From the IMG/VR virus record IMGVR_UViG_2671180283_000020: 11,569 nucleotides of DNA; one strand, written 5' to 3'. Positions 3,572 to 11,367 of this stretch are shown piece after piece. Below the pieces are notes generated by a model, which ran no database searches, was not told the DNA's origin, and worked only from the letters and a program-made list of their open reading frames with translations. Numbering within the stretch: the first letter of the stretch is position 1; each line of letters opens with the position of its first letter. The translations under genes were made by a program, and so were the position numbers. The DNA comes from a virus. Taxonomy: Duplodnaviria > Heunggongvirae > Uroviricota > Caudoviricetes.

Positions 3572-3979
3572 TTATTGATGTTTGTTACGTTTGCGAGCTT
3601 CTAGTAGCTCGGTGAATAGGCGATTAAAATTCTCAACGCGGGCACGGAGTTCGCTGATTTGTGCTTGCTGCTCTGATTTTGGAAGTGCGCGATACAATCG
3701 CAACATCTCCAACTCATCTTCCGATAAGTCTAAGGCGCTGTTGAGTGCAACTGGTGGATCTGGTGTTTTATCCTCGTCACCAAACAGTATCCAAGTTGGT
3801 GAACATTGCAATACCTCAGCCAGGCGATGCAAATTTTGCCCGCGCGGGGCTGTATGGTCGCTTTCCCATAGTGAAATTGATGAGCCAGATACGCCAGCAG
3901 CTTTGCTTAAATCGTTTTGACTTAAACCAACCTGTTTGCGTCTTTCTCTAATTCGTTGACCTAAAGTTTTCTCGTTCAT
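3572..3979 (-). CDS. dicA: DicA-like XRE-family HTH repressor (prophage immunity repressor, 135 aa)
   Basis: MNEKTLGQRIRERRKQVGLSQNDLSKAAGVSGSSISLWESDHTAPRGQNLHRLAEVLQCSPTWILFGDEDK...: HTH_XRE signature in the N-terminus. Same length as DicA and strongly resembles it as I recall. Divergent from a Cro/DicC-like gene. Confidence 0.9.
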   Translation of the reverse strand: MNEKTLGQRIRERRKQVGLSQNDLSKAAGVSGSSISLWESDHTAPRGQNLHRLAEVLQCSPTWILFGDEDKTPDPPVALNSALDLSEDELEMLRLYRALPKSEQQAQISELRARVENFNRLFTELLEARKRNKHQ

Positions 3980-4056: not shown

Positions 4057-4284
4057 ATGTTTAAATCAGACGTAATTAATTTTTATGGGACGAAAGCCAA
4101 AGTAGCGAAAGCTGCTGGTGTTGATCCATCTGCTGTTTCTCAATGGGGGGAACTGGTTCCTGAAGGTCGCGCGATGCGCCTGCAAGAGGCATCCGGCGGG
4201 GAACTTCAGTACGACCCCAAAGTTTATGACGAATATCGTAAGGCAAAGCGGGCGGGGCGGTTGAACAATGAAAATCACCCCTGA
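4057..4284 (+). CDS. dicC: Cro/DicC-like small regulator (75 aa), divergent from the repressor
   Basis: MFKSDVINFYGTKAKVAKAAGVDPSAVSQWGELVPEGRAMRLQEASGGELQYDPKVYDEYRKAKRAGRLNNENHP with GGAGG Shine-Dalgarno 5 nt upstream of the ATG at 4057. The track ORF starts at an upstream TTG (4030), which I consider less likely. Size and position match dicC/ydaS-type genes. Confidence 0.75.
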   Translation: MFKSDVINFYGTKAKVAKAAGVDPSAVSQWGELVPEGRAMRLQEASGGELQYDPKVYDEYRKAKRAGRLNNENHP

Positions 4285-4819
4285 ACAGGTTTGTGAGGCT
4301 CTGGATGCCTGGGTATGCCGACCAGGAATGACACAGGAGCAGGCGACGATATTAATCACGGAAGCATTCTGGGCTCTGAAAGAACGCCCGAACATCGATG
4401 TTCAACGCGTCACGTTTAATGATGGCGAGGTTGATCAACGGGCGCTGGGCGTTAACCGGGTGAAGATATTCGAACGCTGGAAAGCTATCGACACCAGGGA
4501 TAAGCGGAAAAAATTCACGGCGCTGATTCCGGCAATTATGGAGGCTATCCGAATTAGTGATTTCAGGCTGTATCGTGAGATCAGTGATGGAAAAAGCATT
4601 ACGTACATGATCGCCGGATTAAACAAAGAATATGGCGATGTGGTGGAGTCCGGGCTGCTTTTTGCGGATCCAGCTGTTGTGGAACGTGAGACTGACGAGC
4701 TTATAGAAAAAGCTATTGCTTTCAAGCATGCGTATCGTCAGCAATATCAATATTACTTTGCAGATAAACAAATGTCTGCCAGGGGTTCGTATGAGTATCG
4801 ATGCACTACGATGGGCTAA
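4268..4819 (+). CDS. YdaT-like prophage protein (183 aa; proposed CII-like/toxic regulator family)
   Basis: Follows the Cro-like gene with a 17-bp overlap. Contains a K-x-x-x-LIPAI-x-x-AI segment reminiscent of Rac YdaT, recalled with low precision. Confidence 0.65.
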   Translation: MKITPEQVCEALDAWVCRPGMTQEQATILITEAFWALKERPNIDVQRVTFNDGEVDQRALGVNRVKIFERWKAIDTRDKRKKFTALIPAIMEAIRISDFRLYREISDGKSITYMIAGLNKEYGDVVESGLLFADPAVVERETDELIEKAIAFKHAYRQQYQYYFADKQMSARGSYEYRCTTMG

Positions 4820-5822
4820 AAAGGTGAAAACCGGCAGTTCATCCAGTAAGTCAGTATTGACCTGGCTTGCTGATATGTGCGGTGCCGATTTGTGTGCATA
4901 CCCGTCTGTATCTGCCCTGGCAGAAGTAACGGAACTGAACAAAAAGACAGTGCAGGACAGCTTACGACACCTGATGGAGATTGGGTTAATTGTTGATACC
5001 GGTGAGAGAAAAGGCAGAACAAAGCAAATTGTGGTGTACCGACTTATCGGTGTAGAAGAAAGTGTTGCCGAACCTGAATACACCCAAAAACGGGAGTCTT
5101 TAAAGGTGGGTAAAATTGGTGCTGTTAATAAAAACAGTACCGAAAATGGTTATGTTTCAGCACAAAACAGACCCAAAAACGGAACTCTTAGCTGCATGGA
5201 AAATAACCAAAGACACCCAAATTTTCCATCAAAGACACCCAAAAACGGATCACGGAACCCAAAGGAACCCAAAGTTCTAAACCCCACACATAACGCACGC
5301 GAGAGTGCTCTGACCAGTGAGCAGGAAGTTTTGTCGTTACAGGCAGTATTCCTGGATGGCCTGAGAGAACCCATCGGAAAATTTCTGATGACCGATAGCT
5401 GGCATCCGTCGCGGGATTTTCGACGACGGGCTGCGTTGTGGGGGATGGCTTTGCCGGAGCCGGAATTTACACCTGCTGAACTTGCCGCATTCCGGGATTA
5501 CTGGAGTGATGAGGGGAAAGTGTTTACGCAGATTCAGTGGGAGCAGAAATTCGCCCGTCACGTAAATCACGTCAGGGCGCAGGTTAAACCAGTCAGCAAG
5601 GGGGTGAACCATGCAGCAGCACCAGGGGGCACCGCATCACGGGCAGTTCAGGAAATTCGGGCAGCACGTGAGCAGTGGGAACGTGAAAACGGATTTATCC
5701 GCGACGGAAACGGCGTGGAAGCTGTGGGAACTCATGGGGGAGGTTTATTCGAACCGCTGGACCCAGAAGAACGGGGCCGCACCTTCGAAGCTCTGGATTG
5801 CACAGATTGGTGCGATGACTGA
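4791..5822 (+). CDS. Replication initiator, lambda O-like role: N-terminal HTH replication-protein domain plus C-terminal DnaT-like domain
   Basis: From the ATG at 4791 (AGGGG Shine-Dalgarno 4 nt upstream): MSIDALRWAKKVKTGSSSSKSVLTWLADMCGADLCAYPSVSALAEVTELNKKTVQDSLRHLMEIGLIVDTGERKGRTKQIVVYRLIG... with C-terminal ...FTPAELAAFRDYWSDEGKVFTQIQWEQKFARHVNHV. The last ~70 codons are lower-complexity and overlap the P-like ORF, so the true C-terminus is uncertain. The track start at 4716 is rejected (no Shine-Dalgarno; internal to the YdaT-like gene). Confidence 0.8.
   Translation: MSIDALRWAKKVKTGSSSSKSVLTWLADMCGADLCAYPSVSALAEVTELNKKTVQDSLRHLMEIGLIVDTGERKGRTKQIVVYRLIGVEESVAEPEYTQKRESLKVGKIGAVNKNSTENGYVSAQNRPKNGTLSCMENNQRHPNFPSKTPKNGSRNPKEPKVLNPTHNARESALTSEQEVLSLQAVFLDGLREPIGKFLMTDSWHPSRDFRRRAALWGMALPEPEFTPAELAAFRDYWSDEGKVFTQIQWEQKFARHVNHVRAQVKPVSKGVNHAAAPGGTASRAVQEIRAAREQWERENGFIRDGNGVEAVGTHGGGLFEPLDPEERGRTFEALDCTDWCDD
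5168..5275. repeat. Iteron-like direct repeats (ACCCAAA-containing units, at least five copies) inside the initiator gene linker; candidate phage replication origin
   Basis: cagACCCAAAAACGGAac (5168..5185), AGACACCCAAAtttt (5211..5225), AGACACCCAAAAACGGAtc (5233..5251), GGAACCCAAAG x2 in tandem (5254..5275), preceded by an AT-rich stretch at about 5110..5165. By analogy with lambda, where ori iterons lie inside gene O. Confidence 0.45.
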
Positions 5823-6276
5823 GCAGCAAATCCGACAGGTCTGCCGCCAGTGCATGGACCGCTGCCGGGAGGGTGAAACATGGCCTCCGGACCTGGCTGA
5901 GTTTGTGGCACTGATTTCGGAAAGCGGAGCCAATCCATTCGGTCTGACGGTGGATGCTGTGATGGAGGAGTACCGCCGCTGGCGCAATGAGTCCTGGCGA
6001 TACGACGGAAGTGATAAGTACCCGTGGTCTCAGCCTGTGCTGTATCACATTTGCCTCGAGATGCGTTCAAAGGGGGTTGAGCGCCAGATGACCGAAGGGG
6101 AATTAAAACGGCTTGCAGAACGGCAGCTGACGAAATGGGCAAAGCATGTTAGTAACGGCCTGAGCGTTCCGCCAGTCCGGCGACAACTGGCGGCACCCAA
6201 ACGCCCGTCGGGGCCAACGCCAATTGAGTTGCTGAAACAGGAATATGAACGCCGGAAAGCGGCTGGGCTTGTTTGA
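5611..6276 (+). CDS. Lambda P-like replication protein (helicase loader family)
   Basis: Strong Shine-Dalgarno AAGGGGGTG 6 nt upstream of the ATG at 5611. The C-terminal half (FVALISESGANPFGLTVDAVMEEYRRWRNESWRYDGSDKYPWSQPVLYHICLEMR...TEGELKRLAERQL) resembles lambda P (FVAWCREEA...VYEYCRKRGLYPDAESYPWKSNAHYWL...TDAELRRKAADEL). Alternative start at the ATG 5815, which overlaps the O-like stop as ATGACTGA. Confidence 0.7.
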   Translation: MQQHQGAPHHGQFRKFGQHVSSGNVKTDLSATETAWKLWELMGEVYSNRWTQKNGAAPSKLWIAQIGAMTEQQIRQVCRQCMDRCREGETWPPDLAEFVALISESGANPFGLTVDAVMEEYRRWRNESWRYDGSDKYPWSQPVLYHICLEMRSKGVERQMTEGELKRLAERQLTKWAKHVSNGLSVPPVRRQLAAPKRPSGPTPIELLKQEYERRKAAGLV

Positions 6277-6308
6277 GTTGAGAAGTAATTTTTACCGGGA
6301 GGAAATTT

Positions 6309-6583
6309 ATGGAGACTGTTTTTGACGCACTGAAAGCAATGGGAAAAGCCACATCCATAGAACTTGCTGCGCGCGTGAAGAAGTGCTGAACGAACTATGG
6401 GAACTGAAAAAGGCTGGTTTTGTTGATAAAAGCGCGTACACCTGGCGTGTGGCTGATAACAACGTTCAGCAGGAACAGCCAGCGCAGGCAGAACTGCCGG
6501 AAGAAACCACCACAATGAGTGAAGTTATGCAGCGCATACTGGCATTTTATCAGGGAAATGTTCGATATTTTAGACGTTACTAG
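6309..6583 (+). pseudogene. Small winged-helix-like prophage gene split by a frameshift (rem-position gene): 26-codon N-terminal ORF 6309..6389 and a C-terminal ORF in another frame reaching the stop at 6581..6583
   Basis: GGGAGG Shine-Dalgarno 6 nt upstream of the ATG at 6309. Frame 0 reads [26 protein letters not shown] then stops; the adjacent frame reads (E)[27 protein letters not shown]... from about 6380. The two pieces together look like one small DNA-binding protein. Confidence 0.5.
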
Positions 6584-6975
6584 ATTAAAGAGCATTAGTT
6601 CAGATGTGAATTGACATTGTGTGGCACAGGGTTGGGCTAGCGTGGGGGTTTGCTTTGTGTAAGAAACGGATGCTCTGCAAATTACTACTAATGCTTAATG
6701 TTAGTCTGATCTGCTCCCCGATGATTAATACACCGCTATGTTAGTAATGTCTGTAGATCGCTGTGTGTTGCATCCATCGGTTGACCCCACAGTCCAAACC
6801 AGACTGTCAGCTTTGATTCGATTCTATCTACTCAACCTGTCAGGTAATGTCTGAGCTAATACACAGAGTACGGCTATCGCGAACTTTAAGCTAGGTATCT
6901 GATACGCACCGTTCACTTGTTTGTACTTCTTGCACTGACTAGCTATCGTGCGCAGTTATTTATAGGTAATCTCCA

Positions 6976-6984
6976 GTGTATAAT
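6976..6984 (+). promoter_or_regulatory. Candidate -10 element (TATAAT at 6979..6984 with TG immediately upstream) for the 281-aa gene
   Basis: gtgTATAAT about 38 nt upstream of the ATG at 7023, followed by AGGAGG Shine-Dalgarno 6 nt before the ATG. No good -35 hexamer found. Confidence 0.4.
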
Positions 6985-7022
6985 TTTCCAACTTATGGGA
7001 GATTGTAAAACAGGAGGAATAT

Positions 7023-7868
7023 ATGAGGAAAAAATCGTTTGGACGTTGCCCGTTTGATTTCGACGAAGATGTAAAAAAAATAGCCGCGATAAATAAATAT
7101 ATCCATGCGAAATTTGAGAGGCATAAAAATAAAATAGATAACCTAAAGGGGGTGGAACAAAAATTGATGGTTTTACATTACTTTAATGTACTGAATGAAC
7201 TTAGTAATCAGGCTATATTTTCTTTGAGTACCGGAGCCTTTTCAGCATCGGAAGTATTAACTAGAGTTATAATGGAACAGGCTGCCAATCAATTTTATAT
7301 AGCAATTGATGATGGAAAAAATGCACAAGCATTACTCAAGGGTAGTAAGAAATTAGTTCATAGTAATGGGAAACGGTGGCTGGAGTGTTTAAAATCCAAA
7401 GAAATGACTAATCCAGCAGCAGATGAAAGGATTCGTATCGGAAAAGAGCTAACTGATATGTTTAATAGATTGTGGCCAAATACACCTGAATATCCTGGAA
7501 CCAAAAAGCTTTTCGAAGTAATTGGCTGGGAAACACACTATCATGCCTATTACGTCCCTCTTTGTGATTCAATACATACATTCTCTGATGATATGGCAAA
7601 TATAGTATCTCTATATAATGCAATCCAAAGCGATAAAACTACTGCTATCGAACTCACTCTTGCAGTTAAACAAGAAAATAAACGGCTGGCAATTTATAAT
7701 GTCGTAATTGCTATTGGCCTGCGGTGTGAGGCCTTAGTAAATGTATTTAACTCTTTAGGTTATCGAGATATTATAACTGAAATGGCGCCAACAATAGATG
7801 CAGTCAACCAGATTATAATTCGATATGATGATTTCGAACATTCCAGAATTTTTATTGTCAATAATTAA
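7023..7868 (+). CDS. Orphan hypothetical protein (281 aa), AT-rich, predicted largely alpha-helical; candidate defence/abortive-infection cargo gene of unknown family
   Basis: Long ORF in AT-rich DNA with a near-consensus AGGAGG Shine-Dalgarno. No Walker, HNH, HEPN or other motif recognised by eye. Located between the prophage replication module and a decayed integrase plus the Septu operon. Confidence 0.75.
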   Translation: MRKKSFGRCPFDFDEDVKKIAAINKYIHAKFERHKNKIDNLKGVEQKLMVLHYFNVLNELSNQAIFSLSTGAFSASEVLTRVIMEQAANQFYIAIDDGKNAQALLKGSKKLVHSNGKRWLECLKSKEMTNPAADERIRIGKELTDMFNRLWPNTPEYPGTKKLFEVIGWETHYHAYYVPLCDSIHTFSDDMANIVSLYNAIQSDKTTAIELTLAVKQENKRLAIYNVVIAIGLRCEALVNVFNSLGYRDIITEMAPTIDAVNQIIIRYDDFEHSRIFIVNN

Positions 7869-7936
7869 TTGGCAGAATTCGTACATGCACAACAACTAGT
7901 TATAGTTGACCTATTTCGCTCTTGAGAGACAACCAT

Positions 7937-7969
7937 ACTCAAATCTTCCACATTGCAGGAGATTTGAGT
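7937..7969 (+). other. Perfect 10-bp inverted repeat ACTCAAATCT / AGATTTGAGT with a 13-nt loop, immediately upstream of the integrase-remnant ATG
   Basis: Read directly from sequence. The loop/right arm contains GGAG (7957..7960), the Shine-Dalgarno for the ATG at 7970. No U-tract follows, so not a classical terminator. Confidence 0.5.
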
Positions 7970-8490
7970 ATGAATACGTCACCGAGGAACAAAGACAGTA
8001 TCATAGGCCCAAAAAGACCACTTCAGATATCTCATATCTGGGGGCTCCAAATCCGGCTTGAACTGGAAGGTAAAACGCGTGATTTAGCTCGGTTTCAAGC
8101 AGAGCTACGGTGCTGCAACTGAAAAACTGGCAGTCCTATCCAATTTGAGATAACCAAAGGGACAAGAGAAGCTGTTTCTGCATTGATAAAGCTTGGCAAT
8201 TTACGCAGTAAAGACTACTTGTTCCGATCTCGGGTCGGTACTAACCAACACATATCAATCCTGCAATATAACCGAATCTTTCATAGGGGGGAGAAAAGCT
8301 TGGTCTCGAAGATTCGCTTTACAGCACACATTCCATGAGAAGAACAAAACCTTGCCTTGTCTGCAAGAAAACTAAGAATCTCCGGGTGATCCAACTTCCG
8401 TTGGGCCATAAGAAAACGGAAAGCACAGTTCGTTATCTGGGTATAGAAGTTGATGATGCATTAGAGATCTCTGAATCGATCGAAGTCTAA
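7970..8490 (+). pseudogene. Decayed small tyrosine recombinase (integrase catalytic-domain family): in-frame TGA at 8120..8122 and a frame change near 8336
   Basis: Three consecutive segments translate to MNTSPRNKDSIIGPKRPLQISHIWGLQIRLELEGKTRDLARFQAELRCCN* / KTGSPIQFEITKGTREAVSALIKLGNLRSKDYLFRSRVGTNQHISILQYNRIFHRGEKSLVSKIRFTAHIP* / RRTKPCLVCKKTKNLRVIQLPLGHKKTESTVRYLGIEVDDALEISESIEV*. These carry recombinase hallmarks (TRDLA Arg, H-x-x-RRTK, LGH, VRY tyrosine). The last two segments lack any Met, so they are absent from the ORF track. Confidence 0.65.
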
Positions 8491-8902
8491 AGCTGTCAGG
8501 GCTGCAGCAGCAGCCCTGTGCCAAGAGCGTACCAATATATGTCTCAAAAAATTGGGCACAGGTCAATATCAATACCAACAACTCTGATTGTGCTCATGTG
8601 ATTTACTCCTGTAGAAAACGCAGACAGTAAAAATATTTCACTGGCTGCTTCAGACAGGGCGTCCATCATATCATTACATAACAATAGCGGGGCACGATAT
8701 CTAGACATGCAGCAACGATGGACATAGAATGAGTACAATCAAAAGCATGTTTAACTACTTTAATTTAAAAATCTTAGAATCTTAGGTGTAGAGTTCAATA
8801 CTTAGTTACATACCCTTTTGAAAGCATCACAAATCATAACTATGAGCCTGTTAAAGGCATAGGTATTCTTAATTAAGAGCATTTTAATGAGAGAAAAATA
8901 AA

Positions 8903-10276
8903 ATGAAAAGACTATATTATACCCATCATGATAGTCGAACCTTAAAACTTGCTATAGAAGGTGATGTTTCTGATAATGCGAATATTTTTACAGTAATTGT
9001 AGGTAAAAATGGCGTTGGAAAAAGCAGATTGTTATCTCAGATTGCTAAAGACTGTATTCAAGATGTTCATTTCTTGAAAACTTTTAATCCATTATTTGAC
9101 AGAGAAATAACACCAAAGTTAATTGCCGTATCTACCAGCCCATTCGATAAATTCCCTCCAGGGCGTAGGTCATTAAATCACCAAAGGAAAGAAAATAATT
9201 ATCGCTATGTGGGTATGCGTGGAGAAGGCCCCTTCGGCGTATCAAATGCCGTATCCCTTTTATCTTCAGCAGCGAGAGGTTGGCTAGAGAAACTTGCTTA
9301 TTCAGAAAATCCTGCAAATTTACTCGATGTTTTTCATTCTATTGATTTTGAGCCCCATATAGAGTTTGTATTTAAACCAACTTACAACGGACCGGACACT
9401 CCTGACTATAACTTCATTGGTGTATATTCAGATGAGATATTAACGGAAGTTAAGGAGTTATATTTAAAATACAATATAAAAATTGACAGGAAGAATATTG
9501 AGAGTCTCTTAAAGTTAAACTCCGAATCACGTCATGATATTTACGAAGCACTGGTTGAAATTAATCGATTTGAACCTGAACGTAGGGCTGTAACCTTGTC
9601 AGTCGATTTTACCAATGGTGAAACATTGGTTGGCTCGACTTATGCGAATAATTATTTTTCTAGATCAATTCTTAAACTTATGAACGCTGGCTTCATGAGA
9701 TTGATGGATATGCGACTCATAAAAAAAAGCTATGGTCCCATGTCACTTAAACGTGCGAGCTCGGGAGAACAATGTTTATTAGTGATGTTGCTTGGAATTG
9801 CAGGGCATATAACTGATGGTTCTATAATATTAATTGATGAACCGGAAATAAGCTTGCATCCTCGATGGCAGGAAGAGTTTATCATTATGTTAACAAAAGC
9901 ATTTTTAACTTACTCAGGTTGTCAATTCATAATTGCAACTCATTCACCACAAATAATATCCAATTTGCCGAATAAAGGTTGTTATATAACATCTTTGTCG
10001 AAAAGTTATCTTTATAAAGCAAAATACTTTAGCAACCGGTCTGCAGACTATCAACTTGCGGAACTATTTGATGCCCCTGGCATTATGAATGAATACATTG
10101 CCAGGTTAGCTTTCAATTTACTTTCAAAAGTTAAGACTGCTAAGTTAGTAACAGATGATAATTGGCGTGAATTAAAACAACTCCAACTTCTCCTTGAAAA
10201 CGTTAATAGTAATGACCCTATTAATGAACTCGTAAATTCCGTATCTCAGGTGTGTGAAATTTATGCCAAAAATTAA
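8903..10276 (+). CDS. ptuA: Septu-like PtuA: ABC/OLD-type (AAA_15/AAA_21-like) ATPase, 457 aa
   Basis: Walker A VIVGKNGVGKSRLL near the N-terminus, ABC-signature-like SSGEQ, Walker B IILIDEPEISLHP, H-loop IIATHSP. AT-rich gene that overlaps the downstream HNH gene. Confidence 0.8.
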   Translation: MKRLYYTHHDSRTLKLAIEGDVSDNANIFTVIVGKNGVGKSRLLSQIAKDCIQDVHFLKTFNPLFDREITPKLIAVSTSPFDKFPPGRRSLNHQRKENNYRYVGMRGEGPFGVSNAVSLLSSAARGWLEKLAYSENPANLLDVFHSIDFEPHIEFVFKPTYNGPDTPDYNFIGVYSDEILTEVKELYLKYNIKIDRKNIESLLKLNSESRHDIYEALVEINRFEPERRAVTLSVDFTNGETLVGSTYANNYFSRSILKLMNAGFMRLMDMRLIKKSYGPMSLKRASSGEQCLLVMLLGIAGHITDGSIILIDEPEISLHPRWQEEFIIMLTKAFLTYSGCQFIIATHSPQIISNLPNKGCYITSLSKSYLYKAKYFSNRSADYQLAELFDAPGIMNEYIARLAFNLLSKVKTAKLVTDDNWRELKQLQLLLENVNSNDPINELVNSVSQVCEIYAKN

Positions 10277-10898
10277 AAATCCAATTAGATTCAGCGCAGA
10301 GTCATTAGATATTATTGAGAAAAAATTGTCTTCTCCAGATTTTAAGCATACCAACTGGGGAGATGATGATTTGCAAGTTCTCCGTGCAGAAATTAGAAAT
10401 CATTACAGAGAAGAACAAAAGCTAGAATGTGTATATTGTCATGAGCCTATTGGGGTAAGAGCTGCACAAGCTGCTCCTATAGAGCATATTGTGCCAAAAT
10501 CTCAATATCTATGTTTTATTTTTGAACCTAAGAATCTATGTGTAGTATGTCCTGACTGCAATGAATTCAAAGGTAAAAATGAAGTGTTATTTGAACCCGT
10601 AATAAATGGGGGGCGGCGCAAAAACTATCCAACTGCATCTGCATCATTTCGCATCGTTCATCCACATATAGATGATTATGAGATGCATATTATAAAAGCA
10701 AATCGTGTTTATGTGGACAAAACACCTAAAGGGCACTATACCATTGGAATATGTAAACTAAATAGATTTTTTCATTATTTTGGGATGTGTGATGAATTTG
10801 TTAATGATGCAAAAATTGCTGAGGCAAATGAAAATTTTTTCAAAAAAGGTAGTATTACTACTAATGAATTATTGGATGATGACATTCATTTGATTTAA
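10263..10898 (+). CDS. ptuB: Septu-like PtuB: HNH endonuclease, 211 aa from the ATG at 10263 (214 aa if the GTG at 10254 is used)
   Basis: HNH-type motif CVYCHEP...APIEHIVPKSQ...CVVCPDCNEFKGKN...VHPHID (Cys pairs plus His/Asn/His). Overlaps the ptuA 3' end by 14-23 nt, implying one operon. Confidence 0.8.
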   Translation: MPKIKNPIRFSAESLDIIEKKLSSPDFKHTNWGDDDLQVLRAEIRNHYREEQKLECVYCHEPIGVRAAQAAPIEHIVPKSQYLCFIFEPKNLCVVCPDCNEFKGKNEVLFEPVINGGRRKNYPTASASFRIVHPHIDDYEMHIIKANRVYVDKTPKGHYTIGICKLNRFFHYFGMCDEFVNDAKIAEANENFFKKGSITTNELLDDDIHLI

Positions 10899-11007
10899 CT
10901 ATGAATTATTATATTGTAAAGTAATCAGGTAAGATATGTTAGACAGTGAGACTATTGCCTTACAGAATTCATTATTCTTATGGATCGCCTTTCTGACTGA
11001 TTTCATA

Positions 11008-11094: not shown

Positions 11095-11165
11095 AAGCCC
11101 CAGTTAACATTACGCGTCCTGCAAGACGCTTAACATTAATCTGAGGCCAATTTCATGCTAGACAC
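11095..11165 (-). ncRNA. sok: Putative Sok-like antisense RNA (boundaries approximate)
   Basis: Inferred from the minus-strand promoter at 11170..11198 and from the hok/sok paradigm, where Sok is antisense to the mok translation-initiation region. Neither end is clearly defined by a terminator in the sequence. Confidence 0.3.
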
Positions 11166-11169
11166 ATGT

Positions 11170-11198
11170 AGGTTAGCCTCTTACGTGCCGGAAGGCAA
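11170..11198 (-). promoter_or_regulatory. Candidate sok promoter on the minus strand (-35 TTGCCT, 17-bp spacer, -10 TAACCT)
   Basis: Reverse complement of 11193..11198 is TTGCCT and of 11170..11175 is TAACCT. It sits between the upstream ATG at 11155 and the hok ATG, the arrangement I recall for the R1 sok promoter (TTGCGC / TATCCT). Confidence 0.45.
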
Positions 11199-11211
11199 GG
11201 AGAAGCAGGCT

Positions 11212-11367
11212 ATGAAGCAGCAAAAGGCGATGTTAATCGCCCTGATCGTCATCTGTTTAACCGTCATAGTGACGACACTGGTAACGAGGAAAGACCTCTG
11301 CGAGGTACGAATCCGAACCGGCCAGACGGAGGTCGCTGTCTTCACAGCTTACGAACCTGAGGAGTAA
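11212..11367 (+). CDS. hokD: Hok/Gef-family type I toxin (51 aa), HokD/RelF-like
   Basis: MKQQKAMLIALIVICLTVIVTTLVTRKDLCEVRIRTGQTEVAVFTAYEPEE with AAGGAG Shine-Dalgarno 9 nt upstream. Near-identical to recalled HokD (RelF). The track ORF 11155..11367 is an in-frame upstream extension from the mok-equivalent ATG. Confidence 0.85.
   Translation: MKQQKAMLIALIVICLTVIVTTLVTRKDLCEVRIRTGQTEVAVFTAYEPEE

Follow-up and report, generated by a model that had tools for sequence, protein, structure and literature searches.

The window analysed here is an 11,569-nucleotide stretch of viral DNA (IMG/VR record IMGVR_UViG_2671180283_000020) that forms part of an Escherichia coli lambdoid (Qin/Rac-like) prophage. 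Between a DUF5677 gene and a Septu defense operon it contains the pseudogene of a small tyrosine recombinase, positions 7970-8490, which is probably a dead copy of the recombinase (int) of a system that exchanges gene cassettes at two kinds of 24-bp sites, A and B, with the window as a fossil array of such cassettes. The wider proposal, that this 200-residue family supplies the missing enzyme for a natural and widespread system of cassette exchange that moves defense (or virulence) cassettes among lambdoid prophages, P2-like phages, and islands of Enterobacterales, is one that we judge evenly balanced. Homologous arrangements of int and sites reach Pseudomonas, Burkholderiales, and other Proteobacteria. 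The window locus itself is shared, at ≥98.2% identity, by E. coli E2348/69 (NC_011601.1) and a further 17 complete genomes.

Three-frame translation of the pseudogene across its stops gave MNTSPRNKDSIIGPKRPLQISHIWGLQIRLELEGKTRDLARFQAELRCCN / KTGSPIQFEIT... / ...YSTHSMRRTKPCLVCKKTKNLRVIQLPLGHKKTESTVRYLGIEVDDALEISESIEV, reproducing the peptide reported in a preliminary description made from the sequence, in which the region was taken to be a decayed tyrosine-recombinase gene. That identification held. The stitched conceptual protein matched the Pfam family PF00589 (Phage_integrase) with E = 8.4e-7 and 29.4 bits (cut-off 27.1), and the pseudogene DNA is ~90% identical to intact 603-nt E. coli genes annotated as 'site-specific integrase', such as WP_001305361.1. 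As an object the pseudogene is unremarkable, and RefSeq already labels it in E2348/69 as 'tyrosine-type recombinase/integrase; frameshifted; internal stop' (locus L001, 9071-9591, corresponding to window 7970-8490); it is not hidden from annotation.

Similarity searching and alignment to intact homologs, the check proposed in the preliminary description, gave the recombinase match and mapped three lesions. The first is a deletion of 82 bp, which takes out residues 41-66 including Arg51, the first catalytic arginine, and leaves residues 67-78 garbled. In the intact gene, two copies of the 10-bp sequence TAGCTCTGTT border the deleted segment, the signature of a microhomology or slippage deletion. 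The second is a +1 insertion at about 8120, which makes a TGA and brings back the original frame; the TGA described earlier at this position is real, but it sits in a stretch that is out of frame after the 82-bp deletion and not in frame as described. The third is the loss of 1 bp from a G-run at 8287/8288, and not a frame change near 8336, since 8336-8338 is only the stop met by the old frame. The pieces had also been said to lack Met codons and to escape open-reading frame (ORF) calling, whereas ATG codons are present at 7970 and 8335 and small ORFs at 7922-8122 and 8335-8490 appear in the ORF list. Of the catalytic residues R-K-H-R-H/W-Y, the window copy has lost Arg51 by deletion, and its reading frame is broken twice. 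It is a pseudogene member of the tyrosine recombinase superfamily and not a functional one.

Two of the three lesions coincide with homopolymer-like runs (the G-run at 8287 and an A-run near 8120), which would suit the explanation that they are sequencing or assembly errors in a gene that is really intact, an outcome that the preliminary description had itself raised. The chance of this is negligible. The window allele is present as a single ungapped piece in all 18 genomes, 17 of them at ≥99.8% identity; these are independent assemblies from different laboratories and platforms and include two separate assemblies of E2348/69. Because 18 independent assemblies carry the same allele, the lesions are not assembly errors. 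Moreover, an 82-bp deletion cannot come from homopolymer error, and strain NCTC9112 has the same pseudogene, additionally broken by an IS3 element inserted inside its 3′ end (locus L088, 5666-6828). No second copy of the recombinase was found in the genomes carrying the window allele.

The intact relatives form a very large family, with 7,998 of the 8,000 candidate clusters scored reaching E ≤ 1e-10 and amino-acid identities of 60-97% from Enterobacterales to Pseudomonas, Burkholderiales, and Idiomarina. In E. coli, 803 int records were found in 802 of 5426 genomes. The intact homolog matched PF00589 with E = 5.3e-19 and 69.1 bits, well above the same cut-off of 27.1, over residues 35-184 of 200, and is essentially a bare catalytic domain; only ~34 residues precede the match, and there is no N-terminal arm- or core-binding domain of the lambda Int type. 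R51, K79, R151, H174, and Y183 are invariant in 80 homologs, and H148 is kept in 79 of them. The protein did not reach the equivalog cut-offs for XerA, XerC, or XerD (58.2 against 220, 49.6 against 335, and 32.1 against 330, respectively), and the IntI model TIGR02249 gave 15.9 bits against a cut-off of 265. A sequence search of the PDB returned only distant XerD/XerA matches at E of about 1e-3. The recombinase had no match in PADLOC, and all-against-all ORF clustering of 86 loci found no recurrent partner gene next to int.

The architecture of the intact protein bears on the explanation that the pseudogene is what is left of a classical integrase, of a phage or an island, through which the entire island at 6.6-11.0 kb entered an att site in one event. 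A tyrosine-recombinase pseudogene within an accessory DNA block of a prophage is what this would leave behind, but a 200-residue protein without an arm- or core-binding domain argues against it. The gene also lies mid-island, between two separately bounded cassettes, and not at an edge. A sister prophage (locus L005) has the window's backbone on both sides and an intact int in the same place, with different cargo to its left and right. The att-like direct repeats that had been suggested as flanks of 6584-11000 were sought, and none was convincing, only short repeats at chance level being found. The prophage's own full-size integrase and excisionase are encoded elsewhere in the E2348/69 annotation. 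We therefore consider a classical integrase very improbable. The earlier suggestion that the island arrived by site-specific recombination survives in part: the DNA on both sides of the pseudogene is bounded by recombination sites and is exchangeable in relatives, but there is no classical island integrase with att ends.

Comparison of loci showed int as a sharply delimited ~700-bp homology block (window 7916 to 8523-8532) with unrelated DNA on either side. Such sharp-edged blocks are present in E. coli islands, in the sister prophage, and in other Enterobacterales, next to HEC-08 and a dynamin-like system in FDAARGOS_536, to PD-T7-1 in the sister prophage, and to Septu in the window. The block is bracketed by an A site and a B site, and the same sites delimit exchangeable cassettes of the type known from the P2 fun locus. 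Site A, upstream of int, is a 24-bp palindromic sequence, GTCCGCT-nn-TCGCTC-nn-AGCGGAC, with the center TCGCTC(A). Site B, also palindromic and 24 bp long, is GTCCGCT-n-TGTGCCA-nn-AGCGGAC, with the center TGTGCCA; the copy proximal to int, downstream of the gene, has the form (degenerate left arm)-CTGTGCCA-nn-AGCGGAC. The two sites share their 7-bp arms (GTCCGCT / AGCGGAC) and differ in their centers. Inverted 7-bp arms around a center of ~10 bp make up the layout that is classic for core sites of tyrosine recombinases, and to our knowledge the A and B sites bear no resemblance to the XerCD dif site. The exact pattern GTCCGCT-N10-AGCGGAC occurred 18 times in the compared loci, always at enterobacterial int loci, against a chance expectation of ~0.005 by our own estimate.

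Full A and B sites are also present in neighboring intergenic gaps, often as 66-bp units in which A and B are separated by 18 bp. Cargo has the order B-cassette-A, and adjacent cassettes are linked either by the 66-bp A-18bp-B junction or by A-int-B. The polarity of A-18-B was the same as that of A-int-B in 17 arrays and inverted in one. Among the 5426 E. coli genomes, 881 contained the 66-bp unit, in one to three copies and never within an annotated feature. A miniature inverted-repeat transposable element was considered for this unit and is disfavored by its one to three copies per genome and its consistent polarity relative to int. In Pseudomonas, Burkholderiales, and other Proteobacteria, motifs related to GGCCAGAAGCGGAC flank int as inverted repeats of 15-25 bp and recur nearby; the Pseudomonas copies flanking the gene are near-perfect as inverted repeats. 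The retention of these motifs in distant taxa argues for a functional link between gene and sites.

One pair of related loci supports the exchange of cassettes at these sites. The locus of FDAARGOS_536 (L002) equals that of CFT073 (L003) with 3.2 kb added (DUF2971, GNAT, and one hypothetical gene); the flanks are 97-99.7% identical, and the insert is bounded by a duplicated 24-bp B site. From the B site of int to the next shared A site, the two loci contain wholly different genes, a dynamin-like system in one versus ETEC_3214 and a TonB-receptor/ABC iron-uptake operon in the other. The latter, a TonB-dependent siderophore receptor with an ABC-transporter operon, lies between B and A in CFT073 (L003, 11757-17500) and is identical in Nissle 1917 (L004); with a siderophore operon as cargo, the cassette system may also carry virulence or fitness genes.

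The same A and B sites bracket unrelated cassettes at the lambdoid hotspot, at the P2 tail-gene hotspot, and in genomic islands. A scan of viral contigs yielded at least 87 B...A cassettes of 0.6-5.5 kb in at least 44 sequence families. At the lambdoid hotspot, which in the window lies between the replication genes and hokD, the left flank is ..GCTAGCGTGGTT|B and the right flank A|TAGAAGGTTAGC.., while at the P2 hotspot the flanks are ..AATCTGACA|B and A|TGTCAGATT... At least 10 cassette families were found between identical lambdoid flanks and at least 10 between identical P2 flanks, and among the matches listed one family was present in both. The sites themselves are chimeric. Position 8 of B and position 21 of A track the flank, while positions 16-17 of B and positions 1-9 of A track the cassette, indicating that exchange happens within the ~7-bp centers. 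The cargo is largely defense, comprising PD-T7-1, PD-T7-5, ThsB-like TIR, DarTG, AbiH, PD-T4-2, NsnA, GmrSD, HEPN proteins, HEC-08, and Septu, together with several PADLOC candidates and some metabolic genes.

Read against these sites, the window has the order backbone, decayed B, ~35 nt, DUF5677 cassette, degenerate A, pseudo-int, near-intact B, Septu cassette, and backbone (Table 1). The decayed B aligns with the intact B site of the sister prophage (L005, 5835-5858, GTCCGCTTTGTGCCAAGAGCGGAC), whose backbone homology stops at window position 6681. The left flank that precedes this site is the one that precedes at least 10 different cassette families in viral contigs. Window 6706-8074 corresponds at 90% identity to positions 6287-7677 of a P2-like prophage tail-gene hotspot (L087), beginning exactly at the end of the B site there, and DUF5677, the degenerate A, and the first 105 nt of int recur in about 38 E. 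coli genomes, 90% identical and at the P2 tail hotspot. The DUF5677 gene (window 7023-7868; in L087, 6624-7466), described earlier as an orphan, is itself a mobile cassette; it had no PADLOC match and is a candidate uncharacterized defense gene. The degenerate A was judged against the int-proximal consensus GTCCGCTnnTCGCTCATAAGGGAC from 13 intact loci, to all of which homology begins at 7916. On the other side of the pseudogene, the B site, judged against its own int-proximal consensus AGCAGCCCTGTGCCAGAAGCGGAC, shares part of its length with a GC hairpin (8497-8518), and homology to intact int loci ends at 8523-8532.

Septu was confirmed as bona fide by PADLOC (PtuA 1.2e-165 over the full length, PtuB 1.1e-83), with Pfam matches to AAA_21 and HNH, so that the position of the pseudogene between the DUF5677 gene and a Septu operon stands as first described. 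A terminal A site was looked for around window positions 10900-10990 and is absent. The backbone is homologous again from 10971, equivalent to L005 11485, with the A site of L005 at 11222-11245, and about 240 bp of the usual right flank are missing at the end of the Septu cassette. A search for the Septu cassette in other contexts, made to find its original right end, returned only this prophage. A search for an empty site, with the window flanks joined without the int block, found no E. coli genome and revealed the DUF5677 gene with the 5′ int fragment in P2-like prophages.

The window keeps one site nearly intact, with two decayed and one lost. The array is apparently a fossil in which the DUF5677 and Septu cassettes are fixed in place, as the genomes with the window allele lack another copy of the recombinase; given a pseudogene that is frameshifted twice and has lost a catalytic Arg, and a single usable site, these cassettes should no longer be exchangeable. 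This agrees with the immobilization proposed in the preliminary description.

Table 1 Features of the window and their positions
Feature	Position	Strand	Basis or remark
IS3 orfA	353-679	minus	
Truncated exonuclease gene	705-1709	minus	1005-nt ORF
cI-like repressor	3572-3979	minus	
YdaT, DnaT-like replication protein, and lambda-P-like protein	4268-6276		
DUF1627 remnant	6383-6583		Immediately left of the variable region; frameshifted, incomplete in E2348/69 (PGAP)
Decayed B-type site GTTTGCTTTGTGTAAGAAACGGAT	6648-6671	plus	Left border of the variable region of the lambdoid hotspot; 6 mismatches to hotspot consensus
DUF5677 cassette	6672-7907	plus	Gene 7023-7868; Pfam DUF5677 E = 3.4e-9
Degenerate A-type site GACCTAT-T-TCGCTC-TT-GAGAGAC	7908-7930	plus	Left arm ruined, spacer 1 nt short
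13-nt perfect inverted repeat CATACTCAAATCT..AGATTTGAGTATG	7934-7972	plus	Repeat search
Pseudogene of 200-aa tyrosine recombinase	7970-8490	plus	PGAP pseudogene at identical coordinates
82-bp deletion junction	8084-8095 (junction 8084/8085)	plus	Between direct repeats TAGCTCTGTT; alignment to intact copy
TGA stop in out-of-frame stretch	8120-8122	plus	T8120 is the +1 insertion (alignment column 303)
1-bp deletion in G-run, second frameshift	8287-8288	plus	Alignment column 471
B-type site AGCAGCCCTGTGCCAAGAGCGTAC	8509-8532	plus	Near-intact, one right-arm mismatch (G to T); 3′ edge of int block
Septu cassette	8533-10970	plus	ptuA 8903-10276, ptuB 10263-10898
hokD	11155-11367		

From the position of int and the structure of its sites, we infer that the 200-residue recombinase is the enzyme that catalyzes the exchange, by a pathway that would take two steps. 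The recombinase would bind the arms and exchange strands in the ~7-bp centers, and, with arms the same and centers different, B would pair only with B and A only with A. Under such like-with-like recombination, a circle made of a cassette and A-linker-B could enter at a resident B, giving an array with a duplicated B site. A subsequent A x A event would expel the old cassette, and the net result would be an exchange between prophages, P2-like phages, and islands. Where int occupies the linker, the adjoining cassette would be autonomous, and cassettes with an 18-bp linker would rely on the enzyme in trans.

Several points weigh against this reading. The case for catalysis is drawn from comparison of sequences, the A and B classes depend on thresholds that we set ourselves, and the viral-contig scan used an exact-match B pattern, with at least 120 loci. 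An AlphaFold2 model built with 34 homologs was poor (pLDDT 58). In the window, the ~35 nt that separate the left B site from the DUF5677 cassette fit no assigned part, and the right border of the Septu cassette at 10970/10971 is not at a recognizable site. Finally, int was found within the extracted DNA at only 3 of the 120 listed viral B-site loci, so that most cassettes would have to be served in trans, or are remnants, or move by a different enzyme.

The last of these points would also be expected if the sites are genuine and another enzyme, or homologous recombination, acts on them, with the small recombinase as a passenger at the junctions. The presence of int in 802 of 5426 E. coli genomes, with sites in the prophages of many genomes, likewise fits a passenger. 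However, int is always in the linker position and in the same orientation, the same motif flanks it in distant taxa, and the arm-and-center layout is, as general knowledge has it, typical of a tyrosine-recombinase core site. The breakpoints fall within about 7 bp, too short for RecA-dependent homologous recombination. On this evidence we regard a passenger as unlikely, though it is the strongest of the alternatives, and prefer the small recombinase as the candidate enzyme of the exchange.

An enzyme acting on inverted sites could instead be an invertase like FimB/FimE, one that reverses the ~700-bp segment containing its own gene, between inverted A and B sites, and thereby switches the neighboring genes by phase variation. 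FimB and FimE are likewise about 200 residues long, consist mostly of a catalytic domain, and act on short inverted repeats. Here, too, the gene is bracketed by inverted, near-palindromic sites, with the near-perfect flanking repeats of Pseudomonas as a further likeness, and there is a weak match to the NCBIfam model NF007371 ('tyrosine-type DNA invertase', E = 8e-6), although at 25.5 bits against a cut-off of 222 it is sub-threshold. An inversion should be visible as a polymorphism, but none of 928 matching E. coli genomes (358 at ≥99% identity) had the int block inverted between CFT073-type flanks. The differing centers of A and B in Enterobacterales should block A x B recombination, and what varies between genomes is the content of the cargo, by replacement, and not orientation. 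An invertase is therefore improbable, less so than a classical integrase, and we retain cassette exchange as the function to which the small recombinase is best assigned.

The perfect inverted repeat just upstream of the recombinase start lies within the int block and, as RNA, would form a hairpin that pairs the Shine-Dalgarno sequence and the start codon of int, both in its 3′ arm. In intact copies the hairpin has a minimum free energy of -22.5 kcal/mol, and it is in the same position in loci L002-L086. The bases of the stem differ between taxa, with CTCAAATCTCC/GGAGATTTGAG in E. coli, GTCCTCC/GGAGGAC in Pseudomonas, and CAGACTCC/GGAGTCTG in Betaproteobacteria. The retention of the stem across distant homologs suggests translational throttling of the recombinase. 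Two diverged int copies (about 76-85% DNA identity) lie less than 4 kb apart in Buttiauxella (L008, 8001 and 11856) and in Edaphovirga (L015, 1225 and ~3900).

Other observations concern the hotspot and the surrounding prophage. A 35-nt imperfect inverted repeat (77% complementary) has one copy upstream of DUF5677 (6936-6970) and the other upstream of ptuA (8673-8707), and could be chance or a shared regulatory element. At the hotspot of the window, many lambdoid prophages have the epoxyqueuosine reductase gene queH, placed between DUF977 and hokD (L089, 2600-3410). These prophages carry only the left half of B (GTCCGCTTTGCG...), as if the backbone supplies half a site. The IS3-family orfA at the left of the window adjoins the exonuclease ORF. 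The same gene is 2472 nt long in E2348/69 against 1005 nt in the window, and the insertion sequence appears to have truncated it. An IS481 element lies between ptuB and hokD in E2348/69 (L001, 12254-13342), where the prophage region is further eroded by insertion sequences.

The arrangement has likenesses to several known systems. Like integrons, it combines a tyrosine recombinase with polar arrays of promiscuous cassettes, short imperfect palindromes, and many defense genes. Unlike an integron integrase, the 200-residue protein falls far short of the IntI model and has no N-terminal domain, and the A and B sites, by inspection, do not fit the attC consensus RYYYAAC...GTTRRRY. Each cassette here has two heterospecific inverted sites in place of one attC, the recombinase gene lies inside the array, and the cassettes are 0.6-8 kb long, with genes in either orientation and apparently with their own promoters. 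The pdif modules of Acinetobacter plasmids are bounded by XerC/XerD sites that alternate in orientation, dif-like 28-mers on which the host XerCD acts. They share with the present system discrete modules between inverted tyrosine-recombinase core sites in many contexts, whereas the A and B sites are 24-mers of another sequence, with a dedicated gene for a small recombinase between them. Engineered recombinase-mediated cassette exchange uses heterospecific or inverted lox/FRT pairs. As there, the A and B sites have shared arms and incompatible centers, and a flanked segment is replaceable without loss by simple excision; unlike there, the system would be a natural one, with a mechanism deduced from sequence alignments.

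The fun(Z) gene of phage P2 (NC_001895) has a B site on one side (15335-15358) and an A site on the other (17432-17455), matching in kind and in locus the inverted repeats known to flank fun(Z) in P2-like phages. A review credits Nilsson et al. 2004 (Mol Biol Evol 21:1) with inverted repeats flanking fun and with site-specific exchange between phages and enterobacterial chromosomes (PMC8987985), and, going by that review, site-specific exchange via the fun-flanking repeats is already published. In the literature searched, with Nilsson et al. 2004 represented by the review, no account was found of the small recombinase, the A-18-B junctions, the multi-cassette arrays, the lambdoid hotspot, or the breadth of the cargo, and no paper on the protein accessions or on a recombinase for defense-cassette exchange. 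The tyrosine recombinases tested in a paper on serine recombinases as defense markers are unrelated to the 200-residue family. A 2026 study of defense swapping in P2 and P4 lists the mechanism as unknown and considers only transposons, homologous recombination, and illegitimate recombination (PMC13586616).

For the rapid swapping of defense systems at prophage and satellite hotspots, the sequence evidence points to conservative site-specific exchange at two 24-bp sites. The A/B system explains why DUF5677 stands beside Septu in the window, and predicts that both are now fixed. The recombinase family matters more than the pseudogene, as it offers a specific and highly conserved candidate enzyme. 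If this assignment is true, it would provide a mechanism for the mobility of defense cassettes between unrelated mobile elements and would explain the fast turnover of hotspots. The B...A signature could then be used for mining new defense genes, and the recombinase with its two sites would be a compact natural tool for cassette exchange.

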